IMG/VR virus record: IMGVR_UViG_3300035687_000003
Span: 9,410 to 73,409 of that record
Source of the DNA: a virus
Reading direction: 5' to 3' (one strand)
DNA length: 64,000 bases
The position numbers and the translations under genes are program-made. Positions 2,754 to 52,684 of the stretch are shown one piece after another. Positions within the stretch are counted from its first letter, which is position 1; each line of letters opens with the position of its first letter. A model generated the notes under the pieces. The model had not been told where the DNA came from. It saw nothing but the letters and a program-made list of their open reading frames with translations, and did no database searches.

Positions 2754-5330
2754 CTATTCGTCCTCTCCGGCCGACGGGATGACCGGCCAACGGTCCAGGT
2801 GGTCGCCGCCGTCATCGGGGACGCCGTAGGCGCACTGGGCGCAGATGCTCAGGCCGTGCATGGTCCGGCTGTCACTGCCGCCGCAGCGGCGACATTCCAG
2901 CCTTGGTCCTTCGACTACTCCGGCGGTCGGCGCATCACGATCTCCGATGCCAGGACCGCTGAGCCTCGAGCTGTCGGTGGCGTCCCGTGCTGAGCTTCCC
3001 GGGCGTCCATCGCCTCCGCGGTCAGTTGTTCCACTGTCGCTGTCAGTGTCCAGCCGTGGAGATCCGCGAAGGCTTCCAGCCGGGCACGGATCTCCGGGTT
3101 CAGTGTGAGGTTCGTCGGTACCTTCCGGCGGCCCGCTGTGTTCCAGCTCCGAGTCATGGCCCCACCCTACTTTGCGCGCGCGCGTTTCGGTGTCAGCCTC
3201 GCGCGCAGGAACGCGCATGGCCCCACTGTCGCCACTGGCATAACTACCTGGTCCAGCAGTTAGGCCAGTGGCCCCACTGGTAGGCGCGCTGTCAGGCCAC
3301 TCCCCAGTGGGGCCACCAGTGGGGCCACTAGTGGGGCCACTGTATATATGCTGGTCAGCAGCAGTAGATACAGTGGGGCCACCCCGCTCCCCCGTGCGCG
3401 CGAGGCCAGTGGCCGCACTGGCCCCACTGTCAGGCCACGCCGGTAGCGACCAGTAAGTGACCCGCGGGAACCCCTCGGCCGAGATCTTGACCTTGAGGGA
3501 GCCGCGGGCACGGGTCAGCGTGCGCTCAGAGATCCCCGCCGCGTTCGCTGCTCGTTTCGCGTCGCTGGACTTCACCCGACCTTGCCCTAAGTAATCACGC
3601 AGCCAGTCCCGAGCCTCGTTGCGCTCAGACCGGTCAGACGCGCCCTCCCCGCCGTCCAGCAGGTCCCTGGCGTCGTCATCGGTGTCGCCCAGCCACGTCA
3701 CCTTCCCCACCGACGTCGGACCCTCTGGTGTGTCCACCGTGGCCGGCTCGATCTGCAACGCCAGCGACGAGGTGTCCATCGGTGCCAGGTTCGACTTGGA
3801 CCCCGTCAGGACCAGCCGGCCAGTGTCGGAGTCCAGCGCGATCGCCAGGGTGGACCGGGCGACCTGCGACCATGCGATCGACCCGAGAATCAGCTTCCCG
3901 GTGTCGCTGGATTCCCGCTTACCGAAGTGGACGATACCGAGTACTGCGCAGCCGGTCCGTTCACCCACTTTAGTGGCAATAGCTTCCAGCGCTTGACGCA
4001 TCTGGCGGTCTTTATCACCATCCAGCTTCCCGTCGATCACGCTGGTCGCCGCGTCCAACACAACCATAACGGCGTTATGTTCCATTACCGCTTCGGCAAG
4101 TAGCTCAGTGTCGAATGGCAATACGATCGATGTCGCCGTATCGTCAGGATTGAGCGCGTTAAGGAATATCACTCGCGTCAGATCCGCGCCGGCTGCTACT
4201 AGCCGTGGGACGATAGTGAAATCACGGGCATCCTCGGAGTGGATGTAGACGACCACGCCAGGAATCCCATGTGACTCACCCATTAAATCGCCGCGCGTCA
4301 CCTGTGCGGTCAATTCCACCGCGAGGGTAGATTTGCCTAACCCTTCGCGACCCGCGAGCAGTGTCAACCCGCCGAGTGGAATACGATTCTCCCAGAGCCA
4401 TCGCGTTCGGCGCATAATCACCTCACTGGCATACACGGGTTGCAACCGACGCATCGGTGGATTGTCGTCAGAATGACTTTCCAGCTCAACGGGACCCGCT
4501 CGGTGGCCGTTAGATCCTATAGTCGGCACGGGTATAAGTTGGTCGAGGGTGAACCCAGCGTCAAGATGGTCCGAGACATCAGATTTAGGCGTGTCTAGCT
4601 TGCCTCGGACCAGCCTAACCGACTTAGCTACACCGGTCAGCAGGGCCACTGTGTGACGAGCGTGATTGTATCCGGCTTTATCGTAGTCAGCTATTACGGT
4701 AACATTAGCGCCGGCAAGCAATGGATTATATTCAGACAGCCAAGACGGTGGTGATGCGCCGTCCTCGGTAGTGGTAGCCACTTTACCTAGAGCGGCCAAC
4801 CGATTGGCATCTTTCTCTCCCTCGCATATGAAGATATGCTCACCGTGAGCAACTCCATCGATCAACTCGGGGAGCCTGAAAAGCGTCTTGGGTACATTCG
4901 GGGGCCGCTTATAAACCCATTTGCCGTTCGGGCCGCGATGGCGGTAGATAAAGCCTTTATCTCTCTTACCGTCGCCGAGCATCCGGAGGCGCTGAAAACG
5001 TTCCGTACCATCCGGCGCACGGTACGGGTAGGTCTCTAGTATCGTAAACCCGTTTCTCGGGGCGGTTTCTCGGGGAGTAAATAAATCAGATTCTCTCAAT
5101 CCCAACGCAGCGCAAATATCGCTGGTACTGCATTCGGCACTGCGGCACTTGAGAAAAACGGTATCGAGTCCATGCTTATCAATGCCAGGGTCTACGGAAA
5201 GTGACGGGCGTCTGTCGTCATGTGCAGGGCATTGTGCGTCGAATCCACGTTTTGTGGCATGCATGGTGGACCCGTGTCGACGCAGTGCAGCGATGATACG
5301 GTCGAATGGAGTGAATGCGGCGGCTGTCAC
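2754..5330 (-). CDS. Primase-helicase: N-terminal Zn-binding, TOPRIM and RecA-type AAA helicase domains
   Basis: QCPAHDDRRPSLSV; FICEGEKDA; VIADYDKAG; Walker A AGREGLGKS; Walker B MVVLD; GIVHFGK. Confidence 0.9.
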   Translation of the reverse strand: MTAAAFTPFDRIIAALRRHGSTMHATKRGFDAQCPAHDDRRPSLSVDPGIDKHGLDTVFLKCRSAECSTSDICAALGLRESDLFTPRETAPRNGFTILETYPYRAPDGTERFQRLRMLGDGKRDKGFIYRHRGPNGKWVYKRPPNVPKTLFRLPELIDGVAHGEHIFICEGEKDANRLAALGKVATTTEDGASPPSWLSEYNPLLAGANVTVIADYDKAGYNHARHTVALLTGVAKSVRLVRGKLDTPKSDVSDHLDAGFTLDQLIPVPTIGSNGHRAGPVELESHSDDNPPMRRLQPVYASEVIMRRTRWLWENRIPLGGLTLLAGREGLGKSTLAVELTAQVTRGDLMGESHGIPGVVVYIHSEDARDFTIVPRLVAAGADLTRVIFLNALNPDDTATSIVLPFDTELLAEAVMEHNAVMVVLDAATSVIDGKLDGDKDRQMRQALEAIATKVGERTGCAVLGIVHFGKRESSDTGKLILGSIAWSQVARSTLAIALDSDTGRLVLTGSKSNLAPMDTSSLALQIEPATVDTPEGPTSVGKVTWLGDTDDDARDLLDGGEGASDRSERNEARDWLRDYLGQGRVKSSDAKRAANAAGISERTLTRARGSLKVKISAEGFPRVTYWSLPAWPDSGASAATGLARTGERGGPTVSTAADQHIYSGPTSGPTGGPTGEWPDSAPTSGATGLTAGPGSYASGDSGAMRVPAREADTETRARKVGWGHDSELEHSGPPEGTDEPHTEPGDPCPAGSLRGSPRLDTDSDSGTTDRGGDGRPGSSARDATDSSRLSGPGIGDRDAPTAGVVEGPRLECRRCGGSDSRTMHGLSICAQCAYGVPDDGGDHLDRWPVIPSAGEDE
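2915..3157 (-). CDS. Ribbon-helix-helix protein nested in another frame of the primase 3' end
   Basis: RKVPTNLTLNPEIRARLEAFADLHGWTLTATVEQL; TAGGGT-N6-ATG leaderless pattern. Confidence 0.6.
   Translation of the reverse strand: MTRSWNTAGRRKVPTNLTLNPEIRARLEAFADLHGWTLTATVEQLTAEAMDAREAQHGTPPTARGSAVLASEIVMRRPPE
3156..3430. repeat. Iteron-like GTGGGGCCA cluster, probable replication origin
   Basis: AGTGGGGCCAC at 3306, 3318, 3330, 3372; inverted TGGCCCCAC copies near 3157, 3218, 3269, 3418; central TGTATATAT. Confidence 0.7.
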
Positions 5331-5337
5331 CCTAGGT

Positions 5338-5832
5338 TCACCCTGGGCATCCCGCGACGGCGGCAGTCAGGTCCGGTGGTTCATAGTCCGGCCCCTTGAG
5401 GATCTTGCCCGCAGGATGCTTCACCGGCTGACCGTTCGCCGGCATTTTCGTCATGTTGGACCGGTGCACCTCAACCAACGCCGCGTCAAGGTCAATGCCC
5501 CAGGTCAACGCCGCACCGTTGATCACGTAGGCGAGATCGGCCAGGGCGTCGGCCACCGCAATGATGTCGCTGGCCGCTAGCGCGTCGCGGAGCTCAGCCA
5601 ACTCCTCCTCGATCAACGCCAGCCGCAGTGCCGCAGTCGGTTCGTCGCTAAGCGGGACACCGATAGCGACACCGAAGCGTCGGTGAAACTCGGCCACTTG
5701 CACAAGCGGACTCACGTGCACCGCACCAGGCGGAACGGGGCACAGTTCGGTACTGGCGCGCTCACACCGGGTCCGTGAGTCCCGTGTCATAGTGCGGGAC
5801 ACCACGGCTCCCGGAAGATCGTGTACATTCAT
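5338..5832 (-). CDS. MazG-like all-alpha NTP pyrophosphohydrolase
   Basis: LIEEELAEL...ADALADLAYV...EVHRSNMTK...GKILKG; true start may be nearer 5715. Confidence 0.85.
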   Translation of the reverse strand: MNVHDLPGAVVSRTMTRDSRTRCERASTELCPVPPGAVHVSPLVQVAEFHRRFGVAIGVPLSDEPTAALRLALIEEELAELRDALAASDIIAVADALADLAYVINGAALTWGIDLDAALVEVHRSNMTKMPANGQPVKHPAGKILKGPDYEPPDLTAAVAGCPG

Positions 5833-5892
5833 GAATCAACCGTCCTCTTGGCAGATGCGGCGGTGAAGCAAGTCAGGCAGTAGCAGTGCGGG

Positions 5893-5925
5893 CGACGGCG
5901 CTATCCGGGCAGGAGCGCCGTCGCT
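5893..5925. terminator. GC-rich hairpin, possible terminator
   Basis: GCGACGGCGCT-N11-AGCGCCGTCGC. Confidence 0.45.
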
Positions 5926-5930
5926 TGCGT

Positions 5931-6275
5931 TCAGGGGTCAGCACCGCGGTCCCGCAGGAATCGGCAGCAGGCGGGATCATGCTGCTGGATGATCATGTCA
6001 GTGATCCCCTCATCGATCGCTGGGCGTCGGACCAGCTCAACCCATTGCCGCGTGGTTGCACCAATGGCAGCCCGTAGCCGGACCTCCCGCGACTCACCGA
6101 GAAGATCGAGTGTGGCTAGTAGTCGAGTCACTATCGGCTCGTCGGTCTGCTCAATGATCGTTAGTGGGGTACCGCAGCACTCACACGGGACAGACTTCAG
6201 GTCCGACCATGCGCCGTACCGGAGGAGGGACCACGAACGCTCGCCGGCTTCGCTGGCACGGGGATCACTGGGCAT
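5931..6275 (-). CDS. Hypothetical protein
   Basis: Coupled to 6265..6492; CECC motif. Confidence 0.5.
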   Translation of the reverse strand: MPSDPRASEAGERSWSLLRYGAWSDLKSVPCECCGTPLTIIEQTDEPIVTRLLATLDLLGESREVRLRAAIGATTRQWVELVRRPAIDEGITDMIIQQHDPACCRFLRDRGADP

Positions 6276-6492
6276 TGGGGGTCTCCGCAGGGCAGCGCGG
6301 CAGGGCGTCCAACGTATCCCAGTGCGCCGTCGTCAGCTCCCGATGACGAGCTGCGAGCATCGTCACCAGCGTGTCGACACTGTGCCGCGCCGCAGCTGCC
6401 CGTCGGGCACGATCCGACCGTGCATCTGGGCTCATGGTCTTCGCGGCCGCATGGCCACCGAGGCGACCGGACTCCGCGCGATCCATCGTCAT
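6265..6492 (-). CDS. Small basic protein, leaderless
   Basis: GRLGGHAAAKTMSPDARSDRARRAAAAR; TAAGCT-N6-ATG. Confidence 0.55.
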   Translation of the reverse strand: MTMDRAESGRLGGHAAAKTMSPDARSDRARRAAAARHSVDTLVTMLAARHRELTTAHWDTLDALPRCPAETPNAQ

Positions 6493-6675
6493 GGCGCTAG
6501 CTTAGCTTGCTCAGCGTCTAGGGGTACCTGTACGGTGCAGATGCTCGGCGGGTGGCGTGGACAGCCACGTAATGACCAGGGTTAGTGCAGCGGGCTGGAT
6601 GGCTGTGTAACAGGGAGCCTGGCCCTGGTAGCCCCCGTCGGGCTCACGCGCGCTATCCTCGACGCCGACGCCACC

Positions 6676-6864
6676 GCATGACGTCAAGGCGGCCCCGGAG
6701 CTGGGCGAGGCACCGGGGCCGCCGTCATGCCTGCGGTACGTACTGGCGGACGTACCGCAGCACGGCCGTTCGACTGCCCGGCCGCTAGCTTGGCAGGACT
6801 ACCTCAGCTGCCGCATGCTAGCGAGTGCTACTCTCATCTTGAGGTACCGTTACAGCGGTACCTC
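6676..6864. promoter_or_regulatory. Five consecutive inverted repeats upstream of GntR gene
   Basis: Stems at 6676-6730, 6731-6760, 6763-6784, 6784-6822, 6841-6864. Confidence 0.5.
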
Positions 6865-6884
6865 CTCCTGTCCGGGGGACACTC

Positions 6885-7622
6885 ATGGCCAATGGTTACG
6901 AGGGCATCGCCGATGAACTACGTGCCGCGATCCACCGCGGGGACTACCCGCCTCGCGCGTTCCTGCCCACCGAAGAAGAACTCGCTAAGCGCTACCAGGT
7001 TGCTATCGGCACCATCCGTCGCGCCACCGACCAGCTCCAGGCCGAAGGCCTCATCGACAAGACCCGCCGGGGTAGTGAAGTGAAGCCCCGCAAGCTGCTC
7101 CGTCTCCTCGCCACACGTTACGACGAGATCACGCCGGGAGCCGGACCCTGGGAGAGGGCCTGCGCTGAGCAGGGCTACGTCGGGAATACTGTCGTGCTGG
7201 CCGTGGAGCAGCAGCCGGCTCCCGACGGCATCGCCGAGCACCTCGGCATTCCGCCCGGCTCACCGGTCGTTCGCCGCGACAATCACATGAAGATCGGCGA
7301 TGAAGTGCTGCAGCTGCAGACCACGTGGCTGCCACTGGCGATCGCGGAAGGGACCCCACTGGCCAAGCTCGGCAAGGTGGTCGCCGGCATCTACGGGGGT
7401 CTCATCGCCGCTGGGCACCGGCCCGCGACGGCGATGGACACTGTCACGAGCCACCGGTCGACGAAAGAGCAGTCCGAAGTGTTCGGGTTGCGCATCGGGA
7501 GTCCCGTTTCCCATGTTCACCGCACCACGTTCAATGCGGCGGGTACCGCCATCGTGCACGTTCATCTGGTGGTCAACGCCGACCGCGTGTCGCTTGGGTA
7601 TCCGCAGACCTTGTCTGTGTAG
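6885..7622 (+). CDS. GntR-family regulator with UTRA domain (HutC/KorSA-like)
   Basis: YEGIADELRAAIHRGDYPP..LPTEEELAKRYQVAIGTIRRATDQLQAEGLI; UTRA-like C-terminus. Confidence 0.9.
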   Translation: MANGYEGIADELRAAIHRGDYPPRAFLPTEEELAKRYQVAIGTIRRATDQLQAEGLIDKTRRGSEVKPRKLLRLLATRYDEITPGAGPWERACAEQGYVGNTVVLAVEQQPAPDGIAEHLGIPPGSPVVRRDNHMKIGDEVLQLQTTWLPLAIAEGTPLAKLGKVVAGIYGGLIAAGHRPATAMDTVTSHRSTKEQSEVFGLRIGSPVSHVHRTTFNAAGTAIVHVHLVVNADRVSLGYPQTLSV

Positions 7623-7860
7623 CACGTGCCGCAGTGTTAGGGGTTGGTGATGATGACCGCACCTCGGCCGGTTTCTCCGTTGGATCGCGATGAGATGGTG
7701 GTCACTGCGGTTCGTGCGGCGCTGCGTCGGCGGTTGCCTGCCCTGCCCGCGTGGCTTCTCGATGATCTGACGACGGATGTGGTGGTCGCTGTGCTGGTCC
7801 CGGACCTGCTGGGTTTGCCACGCCCGTGATCGTTTCTCATGCGAACGTGGTCCAAGTCAC

Positions 7861-7889
7861 TTGACAAGTGGGGTCCGATGCCCCATACT
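7861..7889 (+). promoter_or_regulatory. SigA-type promoter for leaderless gene, with palindrome in spacer
   Basis: TTGACA-N17-CATACT-N6-ATG(7896); TGGGG..CCCCA dyad overlaps spacer and -10. Confidence 0.7.
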
Positions 7890-7895
7890 AGAGAT

Positions 7896-8387
7896 ATGAC
7901 AGAGACAGAGACCACCATCCCGGCCGCGAATATCGGCACAACCGGATGGAAGCTCACCGGAATGTCGGAAGGCTCCGGCGGCTGCGACCACTGCGGCCGA
8001 TCCTTGAAACACCTGTACGCGGTAATCAACCCAGCCGGTGAGACTATGACTGTTGGCCGCGGATGCGTAAAGAAGCTCACCGGTTGGACACTCAACGCCT
8101 CGCAGGCAGCGCAGGCTCTTCGCAGTGCGGCCCGCGGAGTGGAGATGGATCGTCGCCGCAGCATTGTCGGTGCCGAATGCCCCGAGCTTGCCGCGGCGCA
8201 CGTTGAGCTGGAAGCCGCGGCCCGGACGCTGCGCGCGGAAGGGTTCGATCCCCAGGGAGCTTACGGCCGGGTCGGTCGTACGGTGGCAAACAATGCAGCT
8301 CTATTCACTCAGGCGACTATTGCGGACCATCTCTGGAACGGCAGTAGTTATGGCACCTGGCAGGAATATCTAGCCCGGAATCTGTAG
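7896..8387 (+). CDS. Hypothetical zinc-binding protein
   Basis: CDHCGRSLK...VGRGC; leaderless start. Confidence 0.65.
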   Translation: MTETETTIPAANIGTTGWKLTGMSEGSGGCDHCGRSLKHLYAVINPAGETMTVGRGCVKKLTGWTLNASQAAQALRSAARGVEMDRRRSIVGAECPELAAAHVELEAAARTLRAEGFDPQGAYGRVGRTVANNAALFTQATIADHLWNGSSYGTWQEYLARNL

Positions 8388-8423
8388 AAGGTATCCGCAT
8401 CATCTGATAAAGGAGAGAACGTC

Positions 8424-8780
8424 ATGAGAAAATCTGCTATTGCCAGGACGCCGACGGAAACCTTTGCGATTGGCGACAAGATTGAACCTAACGACTTACC
8501 CGGCCTCATTCTCACCGTGCTAGAAGTTACGCAATGCCCAGACTACTGCGGCGGCTGCTCAGCTTACGTCGTCGAGAACGACATCGGTGACAGGTACGCG
8601 CTTTGTGCGTATGAAGTCCATCGTGCGTCGATTCGCGGATTCGAGGGACTCTGCTCCAAGTGCGGTGAGATTTTCATCCCAGCCGATTTCGATGACCTGG
8701 AGCACCTGGAGCGTGAAGACGGAACTGAGTGTGGTGGCCCTGGAATATTGTCGAACGCTTACGGAATGATTGTGCGGTAA
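8424..8780 (+). CDS. Cys-rich hypothetical protein
   Basis: AGGAG RBS; CPDYC, CSKC. Confidence 0.6.
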   Translation: MRKSAIARTPTETFAIGDKIEPNDLPGLILTVLEVTQCPDYCGGCSAYVVENDIGDRYALCAYEVHRASIRGFEGLCSKCGEIFIPADFDDLEHLEREDGTECGGPGILSNAYGMIVR

Positions 8781-8820
8781 CCGGCGTACTTGTGAGTTGC
8801 GGAAGGAGACGAGGTGAATT

Positions 8821-8988
8821 ATGGGCCGCGTACAAGCTAAGTGTACTGTCACTGCATATCTTAGCGATCACAATTCGGAGCAAGACGATACCGACCGAGC
8901 GTCGTTCGAAAATCTAGTAGAACGCATCCGGGAGCTGGCCGATGATCCGCAGTACGAGGAGCTCATGCTTGATGTTGACCGGATGTAA
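8821..8988 (+). CDS. Small acidic hypothetical protein, 55 aa
   Basis: GAGGTG RBS; MGRVQAKCTV...DVDRM (manual translation). Confidence 0.55.
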   Translation: MGRVQAKCTVTAYLSDHNSEQDDTDRASFENLVERIRELADDPQYEELMLDVDRM

Positions 8989-8996
8989 GGAGTGTC

Positions 8997-9158
8997 ATGG
9001 GAAATACGCCATATGTCGGCAGTGACGAGTGGCGCAACGCATCGCCGGTGGAACGCTTGGCTCGCATGCAGAACATCTCTCTGGAAGAGGCGACCAGGCG
9101 CATTTACGCCGCTATGCGGATTACGTCCGGAGAGCCTGGAGGCGATGAAGAAGATTAG
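8997..9158 (+). CDS. Small hypothetical protein, 53 aa
   Basis: AAGGAG RBS; MGNTPYVGSDEW... (manual translation). Confidence 0.5.
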   Translation: MGNTPYVGSDEWRNASPVERLARMQNISLEEATRRIYAAMRITSGEPGGDEED

Positions 9159-9307
9159 TCGCTAATGTTTGACTTTGGCGTTGACCAGGCATAAGCGTGG
9201 TGGAGGCGCGCGCATTCCCTGCCCACGATGTAGACGGCCTTAGTCGGGTCGCCGCGGTACGCTAATCGTGAGCCAAGCTAATGCACACTACGCGAAGGAG
9301 TTGGACT

Positions 9308-9613
9308 ATGACCAAGATCACGATCTACGAGGATAACGCAGGTGCCGTTTACCTCGGCAATGGAACCCAATTATGGGGTCTCGGTTCCGTCACATTAGAT
9401 TTGGAGGGTACAGCAGCTGAGCACGCTAAGGCATGGACAGATAAAGAGTGGTTCCCAAATGAAGCCGACGGCCAAGTGCCGGCAGATTATGCCGGACTCG
9501 ACATTATCGCTGAGTGGAGCCCGCGTAACGGTCTGAATATTGCCAGGTGCGGAGACAATCAGATCGTCGCAGGTTCCGGTGGTTGTCGCTTCCTGGGCAT
9601 AGAAACGCCGTGA
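9308..9613 (+). CDS. Hypothetical protein
   Basis: AAGGAG RBS; MTKITIYEDNAG. Confidence 0.6.
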   Translation: MTKITIYEDNAGAVYLGNGTQLWGLGSVTLDLEGTAAEHAKAWTDKEWFPNEADGQVPADYAGLDIIAEWSPRNGLNIARCGDNQIVAGSGGCRFLGIETP

Positions 9614-9673
9614 GTGAACGGCCTGGGTACGAATCGTTAACGCTTGGCTGACGAGGGATAGAGGGAAGATGCA

Positions 9674-10069
9674 ATGACCATCCGCAACGGTACCGCCCAG
9701 CTAGGCGGCGGTACCCATGTGCACGAGGTGATCGACGGTAACCTGCGCTGCGGGATCGACCGGCGGCCCCAGCTAGCCGGTGAGCCACTGCATCCCGCCG
9801 ACGGCCCCGTGACCTGCCGACGATGCCTGCGCTCAGCAGTGGCCCACGCGGAGCCTGTGTCAGGGCCAGGGACGATTGCCGAGGCAGCGCGGCTCGCGGC
9901 GCGTTGGCTGCAGATCCGGGACCTGCGGATCTGTGCGGCCGTGGCAGCTGGCCGAGGGCTAAGGGAGGTGGCGCGGGAAGCTGACCTGGAGCACAGCACG
10001 GTGCGCAAGATGGTGGCGCGCCGCACCGGCCGGCGCGATAAGCTACTGTCGGAATCGGAAACGCAATGA
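9674..10069 (+). CDS. Zn-finger plus C-terminal HTH protein
   Basis: VTCRRC; GRGLREVAREADLEHSTVRKMV. Confidence 0.65.
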   Translation: MTIRNGTAQLGGGTHVHEVIDGNLRCGIDRRPQLAGEPLHPADGPVTCRRCLRSAVAHAEPVSGPGTIAEAARLAARWLQIRDLRICAAVAAGRGLREVAREADLEHSTVRKMVARRTGRRDKLLSESETQ

Positions 10070-10152
10070 CCGCGCTCGACGACGTGCGATGCGCACTACC
10101 TCGCCGTATGTCGTTGTGGGCCTATGGCCGGCGGCTCGACAAAGAGGCGGCC

Positions 10153-11943
10153 GTGGCACTGGCCCTTTACCGCAAGTACCGCCCCGCAACTTTCGCCGAG
10201 GTGATCGGCCAAGAACACATCACCGAGCCGCTGCGTGTTGCTCTGGCGACTGGCCGGATTAACCACGCCTACCTGTTCTCCGGCCCGCGCGGCTGCGGGA
10301 AGACCTCCAGCGCGCGCATCCTAGCCCGCTCGTTGAACTGCGTGCAGGGCCCGACGCCGGACCCGTGTGGGGTCTGCACGTCCTGCGTTGCACTGGCACC
10401 TGAAGGCGCGGGGTCCCTCGACGTCGTTGAGCTCGACGCCGCCAGTCACGGCGGCGTCGATGACGCCCGTGACCTGCGGGACCGCGCGTTCTACGCCCCC
10501 GCCGAGTCCCGGTATCGGGTGTTCATCATCGACGAGGCCCACATGGTCACCACACAGGGTTTCAACGCCCTGCTCAAGATCGTGGAGGAACCTCCGGAGC
10601 ACCTCGTCTTCATCTTCGCTACCACCGAGCCGGAGAAGGTACTGGCGACTATCCGCTCCCGCACTCACCATTACAGGTTCCGGCTGCTGCCACCGGGCAC
10701 CATGCGCGATCTACTGGAACAGGTGTGCGCTGAGGAAGTGGTGCATGTCGAGCCCGCCGTGTACCCACTGGTGATCCGCGCCGGTGGCGGCTCCGCTCGG
10801 GACTCGCTATCCGTGCTGGACCAGTTACTTGCCGCGACCGGCACCGAAGGCATCACCTACTCGCGAGCGGTGACGCTGCTCGGCGTCACCGACGTCACGC
10901 TGATCGACGACATGGTCTGTGCGCTTGCCGCTCAGGACGGGGCGACGGTATTCGCCACCATTGACCGGCTGGTCGAGGCGGGGCACGATCCCCGGCGCTT
11001 CGCCTCCGATCTTCTGCAGCGGTTCCGGGACCTGGTCCTGCTTCGGGTCGCCCCGGAGCCAGCCCGCCACGGGCTGATCGACGCTCCCGAGGATCAGCTC
11101 GCGACGATGACCACCCAAGCTGAAGCGCTGGGCGCGGGCAGTCTCACTCGGTTCGCCGAGATCACGCACAACGGGCTCACTGAGATGCGCGGCGCCACCG
11201 CCCCTCGGCTGCTACTGGAACTGCTGTGCGCCCGAATGCTGCTGCCAGCCGCCACCGAAGGGGACGGCGCGATGCTGCACCGGCTGGAGCAACTGGAGCA
11301 GCGACTTACCATCGCCGCCGCGACACCGACCACGCCCGTCGTCCAGTCTCCCTCGTCGGGAGCGAAGCCCCTGCCAGTACCAGACCAACTCGACGCAGCG
11401 GGAGTGCGACGGGCGTGGCGGTCGTTGCTGGACGCGGTGCGTGAGCAGAGTCGGATCACCCATGTCCTGCTCAGCAGCGCCACCGTGAGTGCGGTGGCGG
11501 GCAGCACCCTCGTGCTGACCCTGCCTAATGCCCCGCTGGCCCGCCGGCTGGGCGATGAGCGCAATGTTGAGATGATCAAGCGGGCGCTGCGCGCCGTCTT
11601 GGGCGTTGACTGGCAAGTGCGCTGCCAGCACGCCGACGGCGACACCGGCCCCTGCGGCACCCAGCAGCAGCCCCAGCGGACCCGCTCACCGCAACGCACG
11701 GTGGAGCGTCCCGCCGGCCGTCGTCCGGCGATGCCGCAGTCCCCCGACGACGGTGTCCCCCGCTCGCCACCGGAACCCCCGGATCCCGAGGACAGCCCGC
11801 CGCAGGTGCCGATGGACGATGAGGTGATGCTCGCCGAGGCCGCCAGCATGACCAGGCAGCATCCCGTCCGTCGGGACCCCGAGGAGGTCGCGCTGGAGTT
11901 GCTCGCCGAGCAGCTCGGTGCCCGCCGCATCGACGAGGGCTAA
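10153..11943 (+). CDS. dnaX: DNA polymerase III gamma/tau subunit, full-length host type
   Basis: ALYRKYRPATFAEVIGQ; HAYLFSGPRGCGKTS; Zn module C..CGVCTSC; ELDAAS; IIDEAHM; TIRSR; actinobacterial C-terminus LLAEQLGARRI; ORF open from 10066. Confidence 0.95.
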   Translation: MALALYRKYRPATFAEVIGQEHITEPLRVALATGRINHAYLFSGPRGCGKTSSARILARSLNCVQGPTPDPCGVCTSCVALAPEGAGSLDVVELDAASHGGVDDARDLRDRAFYAPAESRYRVFIIDEAHMVTTQGFNALLKIVEEPPEHLVFIFATTEPEKVLATIRSRTHHYRFRLLPPGTMRDLLEQVCAEEVVHVEPAVYPLVIRAGGGSARDSLSVLDQLLAATGTEGITYSRAVTLLGVTDVTLIDDMVCALAAQDGATVFATIDRLVEAGHDPRRFASDLLQRFRDLVLLRVAPEPARHGLIDAPEDQLATMTTQAEALGAGSLTRFAEITHNGLTEMRGATAPRLLLELLCARMLLPAATEGDGAMLHRLEQLEQRLTIAAATPTTPVVQSPSSGAKPLPVPDQLDAAGVRRAWRSLLDAVREQSRITHVLLSSATVSAVAGSTLVLTLPNAPLARRLGDERNVEMIKRALRAVLGVDWQVRCQHADGDTGPCGTQQQPQRTRSPQRTVERPAGRRPAMPQSPDDGVPRSPPEPPDPEDSPPQVPMDDEVMLAEAASMTRQHPVRRDPEEVALELLAEQLGARRIDEG

Positions 11944-11962
11944 CGGCACCTTCGCGAGGGCT

Positions 11963-12145
11963 GTGATCTTGGGAAGACAATGGTGGTCGGTCAGAGAGAT
12001 CCGAATCGTCGGTCGCTCTCATGTCTATGCTAACGGGAAATGCTACGAACGTAATTGTGCGTATGAGTTCTACAGCGCACCGATATGGGCTAGGGAGTTC
12101 GCCGAGAAGCATCGTCCTACCGATCCGGCGGCTATTCCGCGCTAA
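11963..12145 (+). CDS. Small hypothetical protein
   Basis: GAGG RBS before GTG; CYERNC...H. Confidence 0.4.
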   Translation: MILGRQWWSVREIRIVGRSHVYANGKCYERNCAYEFYSAPIWAREFAEKHRPTDPAAIPR

Positions 12146-12252
12146 CCTGTTGTCGTCGTGATTCTATGTTGTAGGTGTCGTCTTAGGGTATAGTGCGCTA
12201 GGGAATTGGCAAGTATGAGCGCGGTTATAGGCACACTTCTACTGACGGTTGT

Positions 12253-12465
12253 ATGATTCGGTTAGGGAGTAGGCACATGTTTCACGGCTGGAGACCCGAG
12301 TTCAGGTGGAGCATCCCCTTACCGTTCTGGAAATGGAACTTCGTTAACTTTCACTACACATCACGATCGTTCCGGCTCGGCCCTTATTCCCGTAACTCCC
12401 GCGGCCGTGAATCCTTTGACGTCCTAGGCTGGGGCTACCTTCGCCGACACCGGTTCCGGAGATGA
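12253..12465 (+). CDS. Small basic aromatic protein, DUF4236-like
   Basis: FRWSIPL..WNF..SFRLGPYSRNSR..D..G. Confidence 0.45.
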   Translation: MIRLGSRHMFHGWRPEFRWSIPLPFWKWNFVNFHYTSRSFRLGPYSRNSRGRESFDVLGWGYLRRHRFRR

Positions 12466-12583
12466 ATAGTTTGTGCTATGATGAAACCAAGTGCTGACCC
12501 GTACTCTTCCGCGGTGTAGGCGCTTTCCGCCCCGGCCCATCAGCGATATTGCAGTGGCTGCTGCAAGCTGTCGAGCCGGGGCC

Positions 12584-13033
12584 CTACTCGGTATCTGCTG
12601 CCGCGGCGGTCAGATTACGCAGGTGAAGTTCGAACTGTTGCGCTGCTGCAACAGGTCTCAGCACTGGCCCCAGTGTTTCACCACACAAGCAGGTAACCCA
12701 ATAGTAGGGACCGTAGTCCTCTTTCCATTGGGCAGTGAATCCGCCATGCTGACGTGCGGCAAGGGAATGGGCCGCCGCCGCCCGTTCCTGCGTTTCTGTT
12801 GGCGCGGATCTGCGGGGAGCTGGCATTATGAAAGTGAACCTCGGCACCATCCCCCCGTCCGGTAGGTTGACCAGCTCCAGAAACTCAGATTCGCGCATCA
12901 CGTTGACACTGCCCGCGTATGGTGCACTTAGTGACATGTAGATCACTACGTCTTCATTGTTACTGTTCCGACCGAGCATGAGGACGGCGTAGTGCCCGCC
13001 TTTGTAATGTCGGTAGACGCCGAGCTCCATCAC
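12584..13033 (-). CDS. DUF1653-domain protein
   Basis: GVYRHYKGGHYAVL...EDVVIY...R..EF...PRF. Confidence 0.8.
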   Translation of the reverse strand: MMELGVYRHYKGGHYAVLMLGRNSNNEDVVIYMSLSAPYAGSVNVMRESEFLELVNLPDGGMVPRFTFIMPAPRRSAPTETQERAAAAHSLAARQHGGFTAQWKEDYGPYYWVTCLCGETLGPVLRPVAAAQQFELHLRNLTAAAADTE

Positions 13034-13037
13034 TTTG

Positions 13038-13214
13038 TCACTCCTCCTGGGAAGCTGCGATCACGTCTTCCACTTTGGCGAGTGTCGTTCTCAGTTCGCT
13101 AACCATCGCCCCGGTGTCGGTTTCGAGTGCTTTGATCCGGCGGCTGCAGTAGAGATTCGCAGCCGCACTGGCAATGAATGCCAGTGCAATGAGCACGTTG
13201 AACGTGGCTTGCAT
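13038..13214 (-). CDS. Small membrane-anchored coiled-coil protein
   Basis: MQATFNVLIALAFIASAAANLY...ELRTTLAKVE (manual translation). Confidence 0.5.
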   Translation of the reverse strand: MQATFNVLIALAFIASAAANLYCSRRIKALETDTGAMVSELRTTLAKVEDVIAASQEE

Positions 13215-13218
13215 CGGT

Positions 13219-13923
13219 TTATCCCTTTCCCGGTTCTGTCAAGGGCTGCAGAATCGCTGCGGCGAGCAGTGGCGGTATTGCGTTCCCGCACTGCTGGTAT
13301 TGTTGCGTCTTCGTTCCCTTCCACGGGTAATCTGCCGGAAACGACTGAAGTATCCCGGCTTCCCGGACTGCGACCCGCTCGGTCGAGTTGCTCTGCGGTC
13401 CATTGATTATCCGCCATTCAGTTCCCGATGGATGTGAACCGCTGCCACTCGCGCGAACAGTATAGCTAGGAGCGTCCATGTCTCGCGGATCACGTTCAGC
13501 ACCGGGGCCAGAGTTTCGTGCCTGAACCCAGTCGACTGCATTGCCTCTCTCACTATGGAATATGGTCTCCGCAGGTTCGTCCAGTCTGCGAGCGCAGGCG
13601 TTGCCCTGGGTCCCGTTGCGCAGTATCGCGTTTCGTCCAATCTTCCCGGTGACCGTCGGAGCGGGTTCGGTACCCTGTCGTTCGCCGCGGTCGGTCGGAT
13701 CACCTCCAGTTCCGTAGCTGGATCGCAGCGTCCAGCCGGTGCTGTAGCTGTTGCCTTGCCCGTATGACCATCGGGGCGAGCTTTCGCCGTAGACCGTTCT
13801 CCCTGGCCGGTCGATACCAGCCCGTCCGAGGGCTTGAGCCATTGATACCGCAACCGGTAGCGGCGGTCCGAATAAGCTCTCTGCGGTTTGTGGCTCAACA
13901 GCGAACAATTCGAGGATCATCAT
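13219..13923 (-). pseudogene. DNA cytosine-5 methyltransferase with in-frame internal deletion
   Basis: Start ILELFA (motif I cut short); end REAGILQSFPADY..QQCGNAIPP (motifs IX-X); no PC catalytic motif or motifs VI/VIII. Confidence 0.75.
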
Positions 13924-13933
13924 TCCAAGCTGG

Positions 13934-14344
13934 TCATGAAATTACCAGCTGTCCAATGCAACGCTTTGCGTCAGCAATTATTGCATCGAGATTAGGCACG
14001 TTATCACTGCCATTGCTCCATCTGTTTTCAACCGAATCCAGTAAGCCCCGCAGTGTTGTTGATTCAGGATATTCTCTCCGATGCTCGGTCAGTTCGTCTC
14101 GCAACATTGTTAACGGGTACCCACCGCATGCCACCTGTATCCAGAGCCCAGCAGCGACGCAGTGCTGGCAGGTGCGATACGATTCCCACTTGGAGTTGTA
14201 TCCAGAAATTCCGGTCAGGTATGTGTATATTTCGCCTGCCTTAATTTTGCGCCAACATTCGTCACAAGTATGCTCCGTTCGGGCTTTTCTCTTCACCTCT
14301 CCGTTTGTGAACTTGAAAGGCTCACTGTCGTCAATGGCGCACAT
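13934..14344 (-). CDS. Zinc-binding phage protein
   Basis: RKARTEHTCDECWRKIKAGEIY...TCQHC. Confidence 0.7.
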   Translation of the reverse strand: MCAIDDSEPFKFTNGEVKRKARTEHTCDECWRKIKAGEIYTYLTGISGYNSKWESYRTCQHCVAAGLWIQVACGGYPLTMLRDELTEHRREYPESTTLRGLLDSVENRWSNGSDNVPNLDAIIADAKRCIGQLVIS

Positions 14345-14528
14345 CTACATCTCCGTTCAGTCGATTGCTTAGCCGTATCGCATTGAGGTGATCCGCTCCA
14401 GCCTGCCGGGCGTCGGCGTTACTGTCATACTTCGGCAGCGTGTACCATTTACTGCAGCTGCATTGTGCGAAATAGCGTCCGTGACTATCACAGTCCGTCC
14501 AGATCCGGTGCTGAGTGTTGCCGCTCAC
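14331..14528 (-). CDS. Small CxC..H hypothetical protein
   Basis: AQCSC...ADH; overlap-coupled. Confidence 0.55.
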   Translation of the reverse strand: MSGNTQHRIWTDCDSHGRYFAQCSCSKWYTLPKYDSNADARQAGADHLNAIRLSNRLNGDVDVRH

Positions 14529-14887
14529 GGCGACTCCGCTTCGATACGAGCTGTGACAATTAACCGAGTACCAACCGGAAAGTCTTCCGCATACGCCATG
14601 AATCCCGGCCCTGACTGTATCCCCGATTTCAATAGTGGGGATCCCTCGTCTGCCCAGTACCGATGATTAGATTCGGATTTAGAAGTGACGACCATAACGT
14701 GAATCTTTTCTGTCGCAACTGAGCTGAGTATTTCGTGCGCACGCTTATGCCGCATGCACATCCATTCTTTACGCAACGCTTTCAATTCAGCGAGTTCACG
14801 CTGCGAAGCGTAATCACTACATCCGCTCTCTACACAGCCTGGATAAGCACATGTGTACCAGAGCGTACCGCCTCTTCGCCTGCTCAT
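14525..14887 (-). CDS. Hypothetical protein
   Basis: Overlap-coupled; CAYPGC...CMRH. Confidence 0.6.
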   Translation of the reverse strand: MSRRRGGTLWYTCAYPGCVESGCSDYASQRELAELKALRKEWMCMRHKRAHEILSSVATEKIHVMVVTSKSESNHRYWADEGSPLLKSGIQSGPGFMAYAEDFPVGTRLIVTARIEAESP

Positions 14888-16269
14888 GATGTGCTCTCCT
14901 GCGACATCTGTTCCATTTGCTCAACTAGCCGGCCTTCCCGCCGGTAGCCTTCCAGCGCGACAATTACCTTCGCGAGCTCCAGATCAGTCAGGCCATCGGA
15001 CGTGGTGACGGCTGGCACCTTGACGAGCAGTCGGTTGAGGATGAGTAGCCGCGTTGCCCGGCCCACGGCGGTGTCCGTGATCCCACCTTCACCGAGCCGC
15101 TTGAACATCCGCTTGCGAAGCTCGTCTCGTGTTCTACTCTCGGCCAGCTGCTCCGCATCGAGGTCATCGGGTGACGCGGCATCGGGGTCCTGCTCGCCGG
15201 ATCTTTCGCCGATCACCGCGAGGGCCTGCGGCTTGGCTGCCTTGATCCGTTCGTGCAGCTCGGTGTTCTCGGGTTCCGCGACGAGAGCGGAGTGGTAGGT
15301 CCCGTACAGTCCCTCAAGGTCCCCGGCTGCTACGGACTCCTCGATCGCAGCATCCCAGTCGGCGTCAGTGAGACCGGCCGTGGGTGCGGGCTCAGACGGT
15401 GCGGCCCGCGTAGGTGGCGGCTCTACGGGCGGTTCAGCCGGGCGGACAGGCATTTCCGAATCGTCCGCTATCTCAGCACTCGTCGCGCCGTTCTCATTGG
15501 ATTCGACCGGCTCAGTTCGGTCTTTGATTGCAGTCACTGCGGCCCTAATCAATCCAAGTGCCTCTTTATTGGTAGGGTCGTCGCGACGAATTTGATCCCA
15601 TAGCCGCTTGAGTCCCGAAAGGTCGTCGGCGGCTTCGCGCTGAGCGATCTCGGCATTCCAGTCTCTTCCGTTTCTGTTGCCTTCCGCTGTGACTCGCGTG
15701 GCCGTTGCTTGCACCGGTTGACCCTCGCCGTCCACGTCTACGCCCAGTTCTTCCGGTGTGTAGTGCAGGCCGCATAGCACCTCTTCGCAGGCGTCGCGTG
15801 CACACTCGGAAATGGCGCGAGCCTTGAGCATCGCCGCTGGATAATTCTTCCAGACCGGCTTGCTGGCAAGACCGGCTTGCCTTGCGCGTGCTATCGTCCA
15901 TTCGGACCGGAAAACAAAGTCTGGATCATCAGAACGGACGATTTCTGCGGTGGCCTTCTCGTCATTGCCTGTAATCCGCAACCGATGCCCAGCCCGTCGG
16001 ACTAGCGCCGACATGAGTGCGGCCGATGCTGATGGCTTGCCTTCGATCACGTGGATACCGGTGATCGCTGCCATTGGAGCTAGACCGAGCATCTGCGCGT
16101 ACTCGTACGCAAACAGGATGTTTGCTGGATTCTTCCGAAAATGCGTGGGCAGTAGCCCGGATTCTGCGAGATACCGCGCGTACTCAATTTTTTGGGCAAT
16201 TGTCACTTGCTGAGTGGGTATGCTTGAAACGATGGCGACGTCGTTATTTCCGTTCTTATCAGTGATCAT
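14884..16269 (-). CDS. RecT/Red-beta-like single-strand annealing protein with long C-terminal extension
   Basis: SGLLP..FRKNPANIL..LGLAPM..IHVIEGKP..WKNYPAAMLKARAIS..YTPEEL. Confidence 0.8.
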   Translation of the reverse strand: MITDKNGNNDVAIVSSIPTQQVTIAQKIEYARYLAESGLLPTHFRKNPANILFAYEYAQMLGLAPMAAITGIHVIEGKPSASAALMSALVRRAGHRLRITGNDEKATAEIVRSDDPDFVFRSEWTIARARQAGLASKPVWKNYPAAMLKARAISECARDACEEVLCGLHYTPEELGVDVDGEGQPVQATATRVTAEGNRNGRDWNAEIAQREAADDLSGLKRLWDQIRRDDPTNKEALGLIRAAVTAIKDRTEPVESNENGATSAEIADDSEMPVRPAEPPVEPPPTRAAPSEPAPTAGLTDADWDAAIEESVAAGDLEGLYGTYHSALVAEPENTELHERIKAAKPQALAVIGERSGEQDPDAASPDDLDAEQLAESRTRDELRKRMFKRLGEGGITDTAVGRATRLLILNRLLVKVPAVTTSDGLTDLELAKVIVALEGYRREGRLVEQMEQMSQESTS

Positions 16270-16729
16270 CCTGTAGCTCCTTCGCGTAGTTCCTGTTAGC
16301 TCGATTGCGGTTACATGTCAGGCAGTAGCGATTAAATGTGTTACCGTTGCGACGGATTCCGTCAAGGGGATGACCGCAGCGCCGTCCCGTGACACGCTTG
16401 GCAGCTGCACGACGATTATTTTCTAGTTGTGTTACCACTTCAAGATGAAGCGGATTTACACATCTCCTATGTAGGCAGACAGTGCCGCCGCGACACAATT
16501 TATCCAGGTTGTGACATTTATGGTCGACGTGCAGGCCGTCCAGAATTGGCCCGATATGTAGAATATAGGACGCGCGATGGGCATACATTGATTTGCCGTC
16601 TAACGAGATTTGTCCGTACCCATTAGGCAGTATGTAGCCATTCCATTGATGGCACCCATTGGCGTTAATCTCGACTTTCGCCGCCATGGCTGCGCGTCGC
16701 GCGTCGTGCGATTGCGGACGACCTGTCAT
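16259..16729 (-). CDS. HNH endonuclease
   Basis: GCHQWNG..GYGQI..AHRASY..VDHKC..CVNPLHLEVVTQLEN. Confidence 0.9.
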   Translation of the reverse strand: MTGRPQSHDARRAAMAAKVEINANGCHQWNGYILPNGYGQISLDGKSMYAHRASYILHIGPILDGLHVDHKCHNLDKLCRGGTVCLHRRCVNPLHLEVVTQLENNRRAAAKRVTGRRCGHPLDGIRRNGNTFNRYCLTCNRNRANRNYAKELQDDH

Positions 16730-17556
16730 GCTGACTCCAGTTCTCTGATTGCCCATCGTGGCAAGCTCACTGTCACTGGGCCGTCAGCGTAGCCTGGCCA
16801 GTGGTCGAATGTCTTGCACTGATAATACAACTCGATCGCCTCACGATTCTGGGCCCGACCGTAGGCCAGCATCTCCTCATCGGGAGTGGCCACGGTCACG
16901 ACGTAGGGTGGTGTCTTCTCTTGAAAAATGAAAGTGAACTCCGGCGGGTAGTCGGCCAGTCCGACATCGACCACCGCATCCTGGTACCAGGGTGCCTGCA
17001 TGAAGTAGCCGTAGTTTACCATTGATTTCGCTATCGCTGACGGCGCGGCCGAGTTGCAGGTCTTATAGTCGATAACATCTCCGTTACGGAGCAGGTAATC
17101 CAACCGGGCCCGTCGCGGTACCTCCGTCGCCTCGTCTACCCAGAACAAACTTTGCTCCGGCTGGCCCATTTCGTGAAGCAGTTCAGCTGCGTGAGGATGT
17201 TGGAACAGTGCGTCTACCATGTCCTGGGCTTGGATATGGTCGCTCCGTAGGATCGGCACTTCGCCGGCCGTGTACGCGGCCTTGCGCGCTCCCTGCGCAG
17301 CCTTCGTCTGCCAGCTGTCAGCGTCGATCACCTTAACGGGGTCGCCGATGCCGAAGAGTAAGCCGTGGACGACGTGGCCGAAATCCCAGTCCGCTTTCGG
17401 CGGCTCCCCGTGATCCACCCAGTGCCGGTAGTGCGCCGGGCAGGACGGCGGCAGGAGTTTGCGGGCACCGGTGTGTGACAGGCTCCCGCCCGGCCAAGGG
17501 TCGGCGTGGTAGGTGGCAGCGGGGATGTCGTAGACGCCGGGTTGGTCGATCATCAC
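16726..17556 (-). CDS. RecE/exonuclease VIII-like PD-(D/E)XK nuclease (DUF3799)
   Basis: YHADP..SLS..FGHVVH..EQSLFW..RARLDYL..IDYKT..GYFMQAPWY..QEKTPPY. Confidence 0.85.
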   Translation of the reverse strand: MMIDQPGVYDIPAATYHADPWPGGSLSHTGARKLLPPSCPAHYRHWVDHGEPPKADWDFGHVVHGLLFGIGDPVKVIDADSWQTKAAQGARKAAYTAGEVPILRSDHIQAQDMVDALFQHPHAAELLHEMGQPEQSLFWVDEATEVPRRARLDYLLRNGDVIDYKTCNSAAPSAIAKSMVNYGYFMQAPWYQDAVVDVGLADYPPEFTFIFQEKTPPYVVTVATPDEEMLAYGRAQNREAIELYYQCKTFDHWPGYADGPVTVSLPRWAIRELESA

Positions 17557-17666
17557 TCAGAATCTCGCTTTCCAGTGATCTCGAACGCGCCGAAACGGCC
17601 CCGGCGGGCGTCAATCCAGGGTTGCGAACCGGACTCATAGTGACCGAGCAGGATGGCGGCAGTCAT
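17553..17666 (-). pseudogene. 37-aa stub resembling the N-terminus of a YqaJ/lambda-type exonuclease
   Basis: MTAAILLGHYESGSQPWIDARRGRFGAFEI; compare W..AR...IGGSEI of YqaJ family. Confidence 0.55.
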
Positions 17667-17842
17667 GGCTTGATCTGTGATCTCAGCATCACCGTCAAAC
17701 TGTCTAACGGATAAAGCTCCGTGAATGGGTATCCATCGAATTGCACGTCCGCACTTGCCCGATGTTGCACGGTACGGAGCTGGATAACGGTGCCAATGCG
17801 CCCATAGGCAGCGACCCGGTCGTTTGGTTGAATCTCGTTCAC
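17663..17842 (-). CDS. Small SH3/KOW-like protein
   Basis: IQPNDRV..GRIGTVI..VQFD..LDSL; overlap-coupled. Confidence 0.5.
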   Translation of the reverse strand: MNEIQPNDRVAAYGRIGTVIQLRTVQHRASADVQFDGYPFTELYPLDSLTVMLRSQIKP

Positions 17843-18594: not shown

Positions 18595-18607
18595 GTTTGG
18601 ATTCCCC

Positions 18608-19027
18608 TTAGCGTGTCGCGGTGTCTGCCAGTCGGCCTTCAGTGGCCATACGGTATGTGTCGCATGGCCAGCGGTCGCGACATTCCACGCAGTAGTTTCC
18701 GACTAACCCGCCTCCTGCACTCTCCCGGCAATGCCACGTGGCGATTCGATCCAACCGCAGCTGGAGTTCTGCAATAGCGTAGGCGTCTCCGTGTGCGCCG
18801 ATCACTGCCGCGCGAGCTTCCGCTAGTGCCGCCTGCTCGTCGTTGAGCAGCGCGGAGAGTCCCGTGACGGCCAGGGAGGCGACTTGGACCTGCCAGGGTG
18901 CGACGATCCAGTCAGGTGAACCCACGGGAGTTATTGCGAAAGATCCACCTTGCGCTTTAGCTGACGCTAGTGCCTCGTGGATCGCCTCGTGCGCGGCCTG
19001 CAGCACGTCAGGGGTGAGCATGGTCAT
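18608..19027 (-). CDS. Hypothetical phage protein
   Basis: C-terminal H..CVEC..WPCDT motif. Confidence 0.6.
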   Translation of the reverse strand: MTMLTPDVLQAAHEAIHEALASAKAQGGSFAITPVGSPDWIVAPWQVQVASLAVTGLSALLNDEQAALAEARAAVIGAHGDAYAIAELQLRLDRIATWHCRESAGGGLVGNYCVECRDRWPCDTYRMATEGRLADTATR

Positions 19028-52592: not shown

Positions 52593-52684
52593 ATGTGCTG
52601 ATCTAAAGTTAACAAGGGATGTATAGGCAGGTGGACTGCCTGCATGGCGTATAGTTTATGCCGCCAAGCTTGTACTGTTTGGCT

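Follow-up and report, generated by a model that had tools for sequence, protein, structure and literature searches.

Why would a soil phage carry a whole, nearly native copy of the clamp-loader gene of its host? The question is raised by a 64,000-nucleotide (nt) stretch of DNA (the window; positions are those of the window unless stated otherwise) that comprises bases 9410–73409 of the 73,409-base linear IMG/VR virus record IMGVR_UViG_3300035687_000003 and contains dnaX, the gene for the gamma/tau subunit of the DNA polymerase III (Pol III) clamp loader. The record is a real tailed-phage genome, that of a siphophage, about 74% complete by the CheckV estimate, and its host belongs to the Pseudonocardiaceae. 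PHROGs profiles recognized genes for structure and lysis (large terminase, portal, protease, major capsid, major tail, tape measure and endolysin) and for replication and recombination (primase-helicase, MazG-like pyrophosphatase, RecT, RecE-like exonuclease, DnaQ-like exonuclease, RuvC, single-stranded DNA-binding (SSB) protein and Lsr2), with phage genes on both sides of dnaX. Relatives of the capsid protein (40–55% identity) occur in 7 of 301 host-family genomes, apparently in prophages, which fits the host assignment. We describe below a dnaX that appears to have been captured recently from the host, and we put at about an even chance the reading that its product functions as tau and works together with host delta/delta-prime and Pol III at phage forks.

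The longest open reading frame (ORF) at the locus, positions 10066–11943 on the (+) strand, was present as first described and encodes 625 amino acids (aa). The predicted protein is a full-length DnaX (gamma/tau): it passed the curated equivalog cut-offs of NCBIfam models NF005846 (849 bits, cut-off 625), NF011513 (811, cut-off 737) and TIGR02397 (379, cut-off 250) and matched the phrog_5846 profile with an E value of 7e-68. Pfam recognized DNA_pol3_delta2 (132 bits), DNAX_ATPase_lid (32.9 bits) and PF12169 DNA_pol3_gamma3 (57.9 bits, cut-off 24.4), the last of which corresponds to collar domain III, the part that joins the subunits of the pentamer. The C-terminal model DnaX_C (PF20964) scored 21.8 bits in the whole protein, under its cut-off of 26.2, and 24.8 bits when the C-terminal part was scanned alone; 12 host sequences scored 19.6–35.3 bits, and 4 of the 12 also missed the cut-off. 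Motif strings were located at residues 44–52 and 125–130, which we take to be Walker A and Walker B, at 63–78 (presumably the four-cysteine, zinc-binding module), at 155–159 (presumably sensor 1), at about 168–171, where we read SRT as an SRC-like arginine finger, and at 211–218, assumed to be the sensor-2 region. A conserved C-terminal peptide, common to host homologues, occupies residues 573–596. These strings are identical to those of the nearest host copy (P0002, introduced below) except for T76 in the Cys module, which is P in P0002; I154, adjoining the sensor-1 string, also differs. The initial annotation had claimed an intact, full-length DnaX inside a phage with every motif present, including the C-terminal peptide, and both parts of that claim were confirmed.

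The best relatives of the protein are DnaX proteins of uncultured Pseudonocardiaceae. The nearest, P0002 (HEV7450845.1, from an NCBI metagenome-assembled genome (MAG); the same protein occurs in a Joint Genome Institute (JGI) metagenome as P0123), is 85% identical over 100% of the length and 92% identical over aligned columns, and the difference mostly reflects a single deletion that removed about 45 residues from the Pro/Ala-rich linker of the phage protein. In a tree of 61 sequences (quick search, LG+G4), the phage DnaX was the sister of P0002, with an SH-like approximate likelihood ratio (SH-aLRT) support of 99, deep within a clade of Pseudonocardiaceae MAGs; it groups with host sequences and not with phage ones. 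The two proteins share domain order, motifs, GTG start and C-terminal peptide. In contrast to the chromosomal gene, the phage copy has the shorter linker, a Shine–Dalgarno-like sequence at its start and 33–39 private changes (4 in the sister), and it lacks the upstream transfer RNA (tRNA) and signal recognition particle (SRP) RNA. In each of the 4 host loci scanned, the latter two genes occur some 2 kb upstream of dnaX, whereas 0 tRNAs and 0 Rfam matches were found in the window, in line with the earlier remark that these host neighbours are missing. The gene was also said to be more GC-rich than its flanks, and GC content was indeed 0.66–0.70 in positions 10001–12000 against 0.61 and 0.56 in the neighbouring kilobases. 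GC content of dnaX itself is 0.687 and that at third codon positions (GC3) 0.81, compared with GC3 of 0.63–0.79 in 16 phage genes and 0.78–0.93 in host dnaX.

The limits of the host-like DNA coincide closely with those of the gene. When window positions 8001–14000 were compared by blastn with 80 host loci, matches fell solely within 10147–11960, with a best identity of 86.8%; because the likeness at the DNA level is confined to this interval, only the coding sequence was taken. In 10 host loci the upstream sequence is strongly conserved and is unlike that of the phage until about 7 nt before the GTG, and some 17–20 nt past the stop still resemble one host locus (L018). Furthermore, in two other public sequencing runs (X2 and X4), dnaX-like contigs depart exactly at 10147 into host-type upstream sequence, so the left end of the captured piece is fixed independently. 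No flanking direct repeats were found around the insert, where only short matches at chance level occurred. Together with the nesting in the host clade and the recovery of both junctions by a second assembly, this pattern supports the interpretation of dnaX as a recently captured copy of a host gene, the 'captured tau' of the initial annotation, for which the proposed phylogeny against host DnaX spoke as well. The conserved host leader is of interest in its own right: the 60 nt before dnaX are strongly conserved in 10 MAG loci (L015–L025; ..GTGCACCTCGTGCCGTGAGGAC..GGTAGCCTCGC..), contain no obvious Shine–Dalgarno sequence and may form a regulatory or structured leader.

Comparison with host genes also bears on the start codon. 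Among 76 extracted host dnaX coding sequences, 73 start with V/M-[ASV]LALYRKYRP or, two codons further in, with VALYRKYRP, and the remaining 3 had been cut further in by the extraction script. The phage equivalent of this host start (VALALYRKYRP) begins at the GTG at 10153, and the gene probably starts there. The Shine–Dalgarno-like AAGAGG before this codon is replaced by GGTARCCTC... in the 10 host loci compared. The ATG at 10066 that opens the longest ORF overlaps the stop of the upstream gene by 4 bases (ATGA) and would add the phage-specific extension listed in Table 1; as the start in use it is uncertain. Since the host start is homologous to the GTG, the ATGA overlap belongs to the longest-ORF reading, and the reported overlap with the upstream helix-turn-helix (HTH) gene therefore stands for the ORF from the ATG and falls away for the probable start.

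The linkage of the gene to the phage was examined in public sequencing runs. One soil run (X1), which may be the source sample of the record, holds 97% of the sampled words of positions 9300–12700, and eight other runs (X2–X9) hold 5–6% of them. Contigs of X2–X4 cover dnaX alone and have host-type flanks, so those runs show relatives of the host gene rather than the phage. No RNA run containing the stretch was found among the public runs searched. A second assembly, the Logan contigs of X1, was compared with the record over positions 9000–13000. A 1,981-base contig covers 9000–10322 with 0 differences at a depth of 12.3, a 1,480-base contig covers 10874–12353 with 0 differences at a depth of 13.9, and a 10,068-base contig continues from 12324 at a depth of 11.2. 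The break between the first two (10322–10874) falls in the most conserved part of dnaX, which is common to many organisms, and word depth rises to 310–518 at 10206–10607. Contigs of a second assembler thus run across both joints between dnaX and phage DNA with no mismatch, and their depth equals that of the phage flanks, which makes a chimera unlikely; the first check proposed for this locus, read mapping across the junctions, had been aimed at the same joints.

What could such a gene do in this phage? Its surroundings offer a replication context: the primase-helicase, DnaQ-like exonuclease and SSB reported earlier in the window were each matched by PHROGs. The same annotation found no clamp, delta or polymerase gene, which is correct for the window and incorrect for the record, because a beta clamp gene lies 1.4 kb before the window start. 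The clamp is 32–37% identical to DnaN of five host-family genomes and 26–30% identical to the clamps of phage DS6A, Arthrobacter phages and Mycobacterium prophages; it is an old phage gene. Beside it lies a gene for an 877-aa helicase-methylase fusion (Helicase_C plus N6_N4 methylase; record positions 4193–6826, (−) strand). No family match to Pol III alpha, PolA or delta, the companions looked for alongside PHROG 5846 loaders, was found in the 73 kb of the record (no separate search was made for delta-prime), and with the record about 74% complete this absence holds only for the part present. The gene set around dnaX thus combines replication and recombination neighbours, a beta clamp and, in the part of the record present, no polymerase.

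We propose a model in which expression, assembly and benefit are inferred. The siphophage would recently have placed a copy of the host dnaX coding sequence at the 3′ end of an early (+) gene block and would keep the gene working, with expression during infection from the GTG at 10153 by way of the Shine–Dalgarno sequence at the junction. Being about 92% host-like, the phage tau should form a clamp loader with the delta and delta-prime subunits of the host. In E. coli the C-terminal region of tau works with alpha (PMC4703070), and by analogy with E. coli tau the C-terminal domain and peptide of the phage protein would hold host Pol III alpha (DnaE1). Forks would be put together by phage proteins (primase-helicase, SSB, DnaQ-like exonuclease and beta clamp), and the extra tau would raise the supply of tau-containing holoenzyme at these forks or maintain it when host expression falls. 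Steering Pol III to the phage helicase, or boosting a limiting subunit, is a plausible benefit by analogy with phage SPP1.

A functional parallel is phage SPP1, whose gp40 helicase binds DnaG and DnaX of the host and in this way recruits the replisome (PMC6316719) and whose rolling-circle replication in vitro requires the host proteins tau-delta-delta-prime, beta, PolC and DnaE (PMC3561973). The phage described here, in the part of its genome that is present, resembles SPP1 in having its own helicase, SSB and recombination genes and no replicative polymerase, and such a phage must engage host Pol III. By this analogy our phage would replicate with host Pol III, and its helicase would bring in the host replisome via DnaG and DnaX. 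SPP1 uses host tau, whereas this phage carries a copy, and binding between its primase-helicase and tau is suggested by analogy only: a predicted complex of the primase-helicase (residues 270–858) with the C-terminal 196 aa of tau received a score of 0.00, which is no evidence either way. A second parallel is provided by actinophage beta clamps, which are routinely annotated and which, as in Mycobacterium phage DS6A (gp34) and Arthrobacter phages, are accessory genes in polymerase-less phages; this record has one. Those clamps are old and divergent, whereas dnaX here is newly copied from the host. The DnaX matches listed (41 of 292 phage records) included none of the 85 clamp-bearing phage records.

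DnaX-family proteins have been seen in phages before. PHROG 5846 and PHROG 168 comprise phage loader subunits with the DnaX N-terminal AAA+ module, as here. In Streptococcus phage Dp-1 a 341-aa gp17 is followed by two more loader subunits (gp17–19), in Bacillus phage Flasso a 368-aa gamma/tau is followed by delta-prime and delta, and in Nodularia phage vB_NspS-kac65v151 a 487-aa loader lies near a PolA gene. These known forms, which are short (341–487 aa), gamma-like and divergent, are 31–35% identical to the present protein, in the N-terminal half only, and belong to phage-owned loader sets; by contrast, the DnaX described here is a full-length tau, nearly identical to that of the host, that stands alone. 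According to PMC12153180, viral variants of clamp-loader small subunits form divergent clusters. The initial annotation regarded the locus as a candidate for an undescribed system, which is too strong for one gene in one record from one sample, given that phage DnaX-family subunits and actinophage clamps are already annotated. The case is unusual in degree, as a whole and near-native tau, and not in kind.

A search for further copies, likewise proposed at the outset, returned no second phage with this gene. A tblastn search of 50,697 phage records gave matches in 292, all below 60% identity and none covering 80% of the query; among the matches listed, true phage proteins matched the N-terminal part alone, at 31–35% identity, and the C-terminal 196 aa had no match in any of the 50,697 records. 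The best 'phage' match, MT835827.1 (L271; 'UNVERIFIED: Bacteriophage sp.'), was rejected as a bacterial fragment: it includes genes for an SDF symporter and an MFS transporter along with others of cellular type. In IMG/VR, 12 loci matched at 31–47% identity, all in the N-terminal part, and no locus matched the C-terminal domain; the C-terminal collection scan used the 13 closest regions (alignment A2), as a 26-region alignment (A1) was too diverse. One IMG/VR locus (L003; IMGVR_UViG_3300029323_000050, positions 9950–10741) holds a DnaX-like gene, 45–47% identical over residues 3–232 and cut by the contig end, and also encodes a large polyvalent tail-lysozyme protein, a holin and a GH25 lysin. 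No close relative of the phage itself was found in IMG/VR or JGI metagenome contigs: a RecT query gave 6 loci of 37–65% identity without shared neighbours, and a beta clamp query gave nothing in IMG/VR. No dnaX was present in 80 metagenome loci with related primase-helicases (best match 57% over part of the protein), and 5 host-family genomes that contain related prophage capsid genes carry just one dnaX apiece. Papers on dnaX and phages found in literature searches dealt with inteins, predicted interactions, SPP1 or phage Mu; none described an actinophage with a full-length dnaX of host type.

Next, we asked how the gene has changed since it left the host. In 195 host sequences, 247 columns are conserved to at least 95%, and the phage protein matches the host consensus at 242 of them; the 5 differences compare with a median of 1 for host proteins and 1–2 for the nearest kin. 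When differences from P0002 were polarised with P0003, P0004 and P0005 as outgroups, 33 fell on the phage branch, with 6 more ambiguous, and 4 on the P0002 branch (Tajima-type chi-square of 22.7 for 33 versus 4, by our own arithmetic), so that most of the change since the split took place on the phage side. Only 4 of the 33 phage-branch changes lie in the columns at least 95% conserved, whereas 41.6% would be expected there if changes were even (binomial p = 2.5e-4); this avoidance of conserved columns suggests that the protein is still under selection. Pairwise Nei–Gojobori ratios of nonsynonymous to synonymous change (omega) between the phage gene and 12 host genes were 0.085–0.141 in domains I–III (388 codons) and 0.20–0.41 in the ungapped C-terminal part (150 codons), both much like those of host–host pairs. 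The earlier proposal to compare dN/dS with host DnaX was answered in part by a three-point Nei–Gojobori (NG86) estimate of 0.18–0.19 for the lineage leading to the phage (0.12–0.14 in domains I–III) against 0.10–0.12 for host lineages, a value that is not confined to the phage-only branch. Together, these patterns argue for faster evolution in the phage under continued, perhaps somewhat relaxed, purifying selection. Private synonymous changes are biased from GC to AT in the phage (38 of 43) and equally so in all 12 host lineages, so amelioration as a test of the time spent in the phage says nothing.

Several observations weigh against a working tau. The lineage omega of 0.18–0.19 is calculated without the DNA of the sister (P0002/P0123) and therefore extends beyond the phage-only branch, some of the 'phage' branch may represent time in a host that was not sampled, and a ninefold faster rate of protein change is also the outcome of full relaxation at equal mutation rates. 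One replacement, P175R, lies just after the SRC-like SRT in a column invariant among the 195 host sequences. The GC3 of 0.81 is still host-like and thus gives no visible adaptation to the phage. As no delta was found in the record, any function of dnaX depends on host partners. In a consensus scan of positions 6500–13200, promoter-like sites numbered 2 where 1.5 were expected and terminator-like sites 5 where 3.5 were expected, with no site at the gene, which is background level and no sign of expression. Finally, the captured gene is a singleton, from one record and one sample.

In the main rival reading, which we consider less likely, the gene is a recent passenger, brought in by illegitimate recombination shortly before sampling, of no benefit and with no time to decay. 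The single occurrence and the lack of phage relatives that would show retention fit a passenger, as do the host-like GC3, the 92% identity to the host copy over aligned columns, the faster protein change than in the sister host branch (33 versus 4) and the five unusual replacements in conserved columns, where the host median is 1. A passenger is harder to reconcile with 596 codons free of stops and frameshifts, with changes that avoid conserved columns, and with flanks trimmed to the coding sequence and a Shine–Dalgarno sequence at the junction. Moreover, phage genomes are under pressure to drop useless DNA.

A more ambitious version of the working-tau reading, which we hold to be improbable, sees in the diverging protein a portable adaptor that couples the phage primase-helicase and divergent clamp to host DnaE1 and delta/delta-prime. 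Host take-over or counter-defence, in which the protein would divert delta/delta-prime and Pol III from the chromosome, replace a host tau inactivated by the phage or by a defence system, or act as a decoy for a factor that senses or attacks the replisome, appears quite improbable. It would agree with the accelerated change relative to the host sister (39 changes, including P175R by the SRC-like motif), with the linker shorter by about 45 residues, and with a beta clamp only 32–37% identical to host DnaN, which suggests that the replisome is already partly private; phage inhibitors of clamp loaders exist, as the title of a reference in PMC3561973, on phage N4, indicates. However, host linkers vary widely in length (proteins of 595–944 aa), the ATPase motifs and C-terminal peptide are intact with no inhibitor mark in the sequence, and no defence or anti-defence gene was identified beside dnaX. 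Last, it is barely credible that the assembler joined a host dnaX fragment to phage DNA: conserved dnaX parts are indeed common to many organisms in the sample, no single Logan contig covers the entire gene and all support comes from one sample that may be the record's own source, but such an artefact needs two joints exactly at the gene ends with phage genes on both sides, each joint is crossed by second-assembler contigs, and the sequence is identical to no host copy.

The features discussed above and those next to them are collected in Table 1. The genes neighbouring dnaX are not recent captures. The upstream ORF had no PHROG match and no relative in viral or metagenome contigs, and marginal matches to it (E values of 1e-4 or weaker) occur in 7 of 301 host-family genomes. 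As the last gene of a (+) strand block, dnaX stands before a convergent gap, in which small ORFs (11918–12145 and 12253–12465) had no Pfam match; with its host origin, its place at the edge of a transcription block and its host-like composition it resembles a 'moron'. The block is headed by a GntR/UTRA (HutC-type) regulator gene (6885–7622, (+) strand). This gene was ruled out as a second recent capture, its best match in the 301 host-family genomes being 48%; the genome with that match also holds dnaX locus L016. Unpublished genomes in the capsid and GntR comparisons count towards tallies only (30 of 301 and 300 of 301) and carry no individual claim.

Table 1. Features at and around the phage dnaX gene. 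Columns give feature, position, strand and evidence; positions are those of the window, except for the beta clamp.
Coding sequence of dnaX (tau), 596 aa, with host-type GTG as probable start	10153–11943	+	NCBIfam; Pfam; start homology; P0002 85% identity over 100% coverage
Host-derived segment: coding sequence, ~7 nt before and ~17–20 nt after it	10147–11963		blastn; flank comparison; X2/X4 contigs
Shine–Dalgarno-like AAGAGG, five bases before GTG, at left junction	10143–10148	+	Read from sequence
In-frame 29-codon upstream extension, phage-specific sequence	10066–10152	+	No likeness to host upstream DNA
Upstream phage ORF, 131 aa, HTH-like C terminus, no clear family	9674–10069	+	Pfam: Sf6_terminase-like alone, E 0.0065
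Gap of 640 bases without supported gene, GC 0.56	11944–12583		(+) block (6885–11943) meets (−) block (12584–19123)
DUF1653 protein, downstream neighbour	12584–13033	−	Pfam PF07866, E 7e-10
Phage primase-helicase, 858 aa, presumed fork helicase	2754–5330	−	PHROGs 10729, 239, 6088; Pfam AAA_25, 104 bits
DnaQ-like 3′–5′ exonuclease	17839–18594	−	phrog_192, E 3e-36; Pfam RNase_T, 42 bits
Phage SSB	20939–21439	+	phrog_44, E 3e-47
Divergent beta sliding clamp	record 6823–7965	−	All three Pfam beta-clamp domains above cut-offs

Further observations concern other parts of the window. A YspA/SLOG-family protein (PF10686; phrog_289) is encoded near the primase-helicase (966–1415, (−) strand). A 234-aa ORF (13219–13923, (−) strand) matches positions 239–320 of the 324 positions of a C-5 cytosine methylase profile, the C-terminal quarter alone, and may be a truncated or split methylase. 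Five free-standing HNH/endonuclease VII genes (16259–16756 on the (−) strand; 30707–31288, 36291–37118, 40813–41589 and 52658–53329 on the (+) strand), four of which break up the structural gene block, amount to a heavy load of likely homing endonucleases. An 811-aa ORF (43528–45963, (+) strand) without a PHROG match lies in the most GC-rich part of the structural region (GC 0.65–0.69).

The locus is a real instance, the single one so far, in which a virus has borrowed a central component of its host's replication machinery. A phage that has no polymerase of its own has to capture the Pol III holoenzyme of its host, in which tau connects polymerase, clamp loader and helicase as their hub; the captured gene would be a natural experiment that could show which replisome part limits phage replication and how far a core subunit with several partners can move between genomes. 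If the protein is functional, it offers a tractable test, whereas as a passenger the gene would give a dated picture of how cleanly a phage can cut out a single essential host gene. Should it act as a portable adaptor, replication of the phage would be independent of the amount, state and exact sequence of the resident host tau, which could buffer host shut-off, replisome-directed defence and jumps between related hosts.

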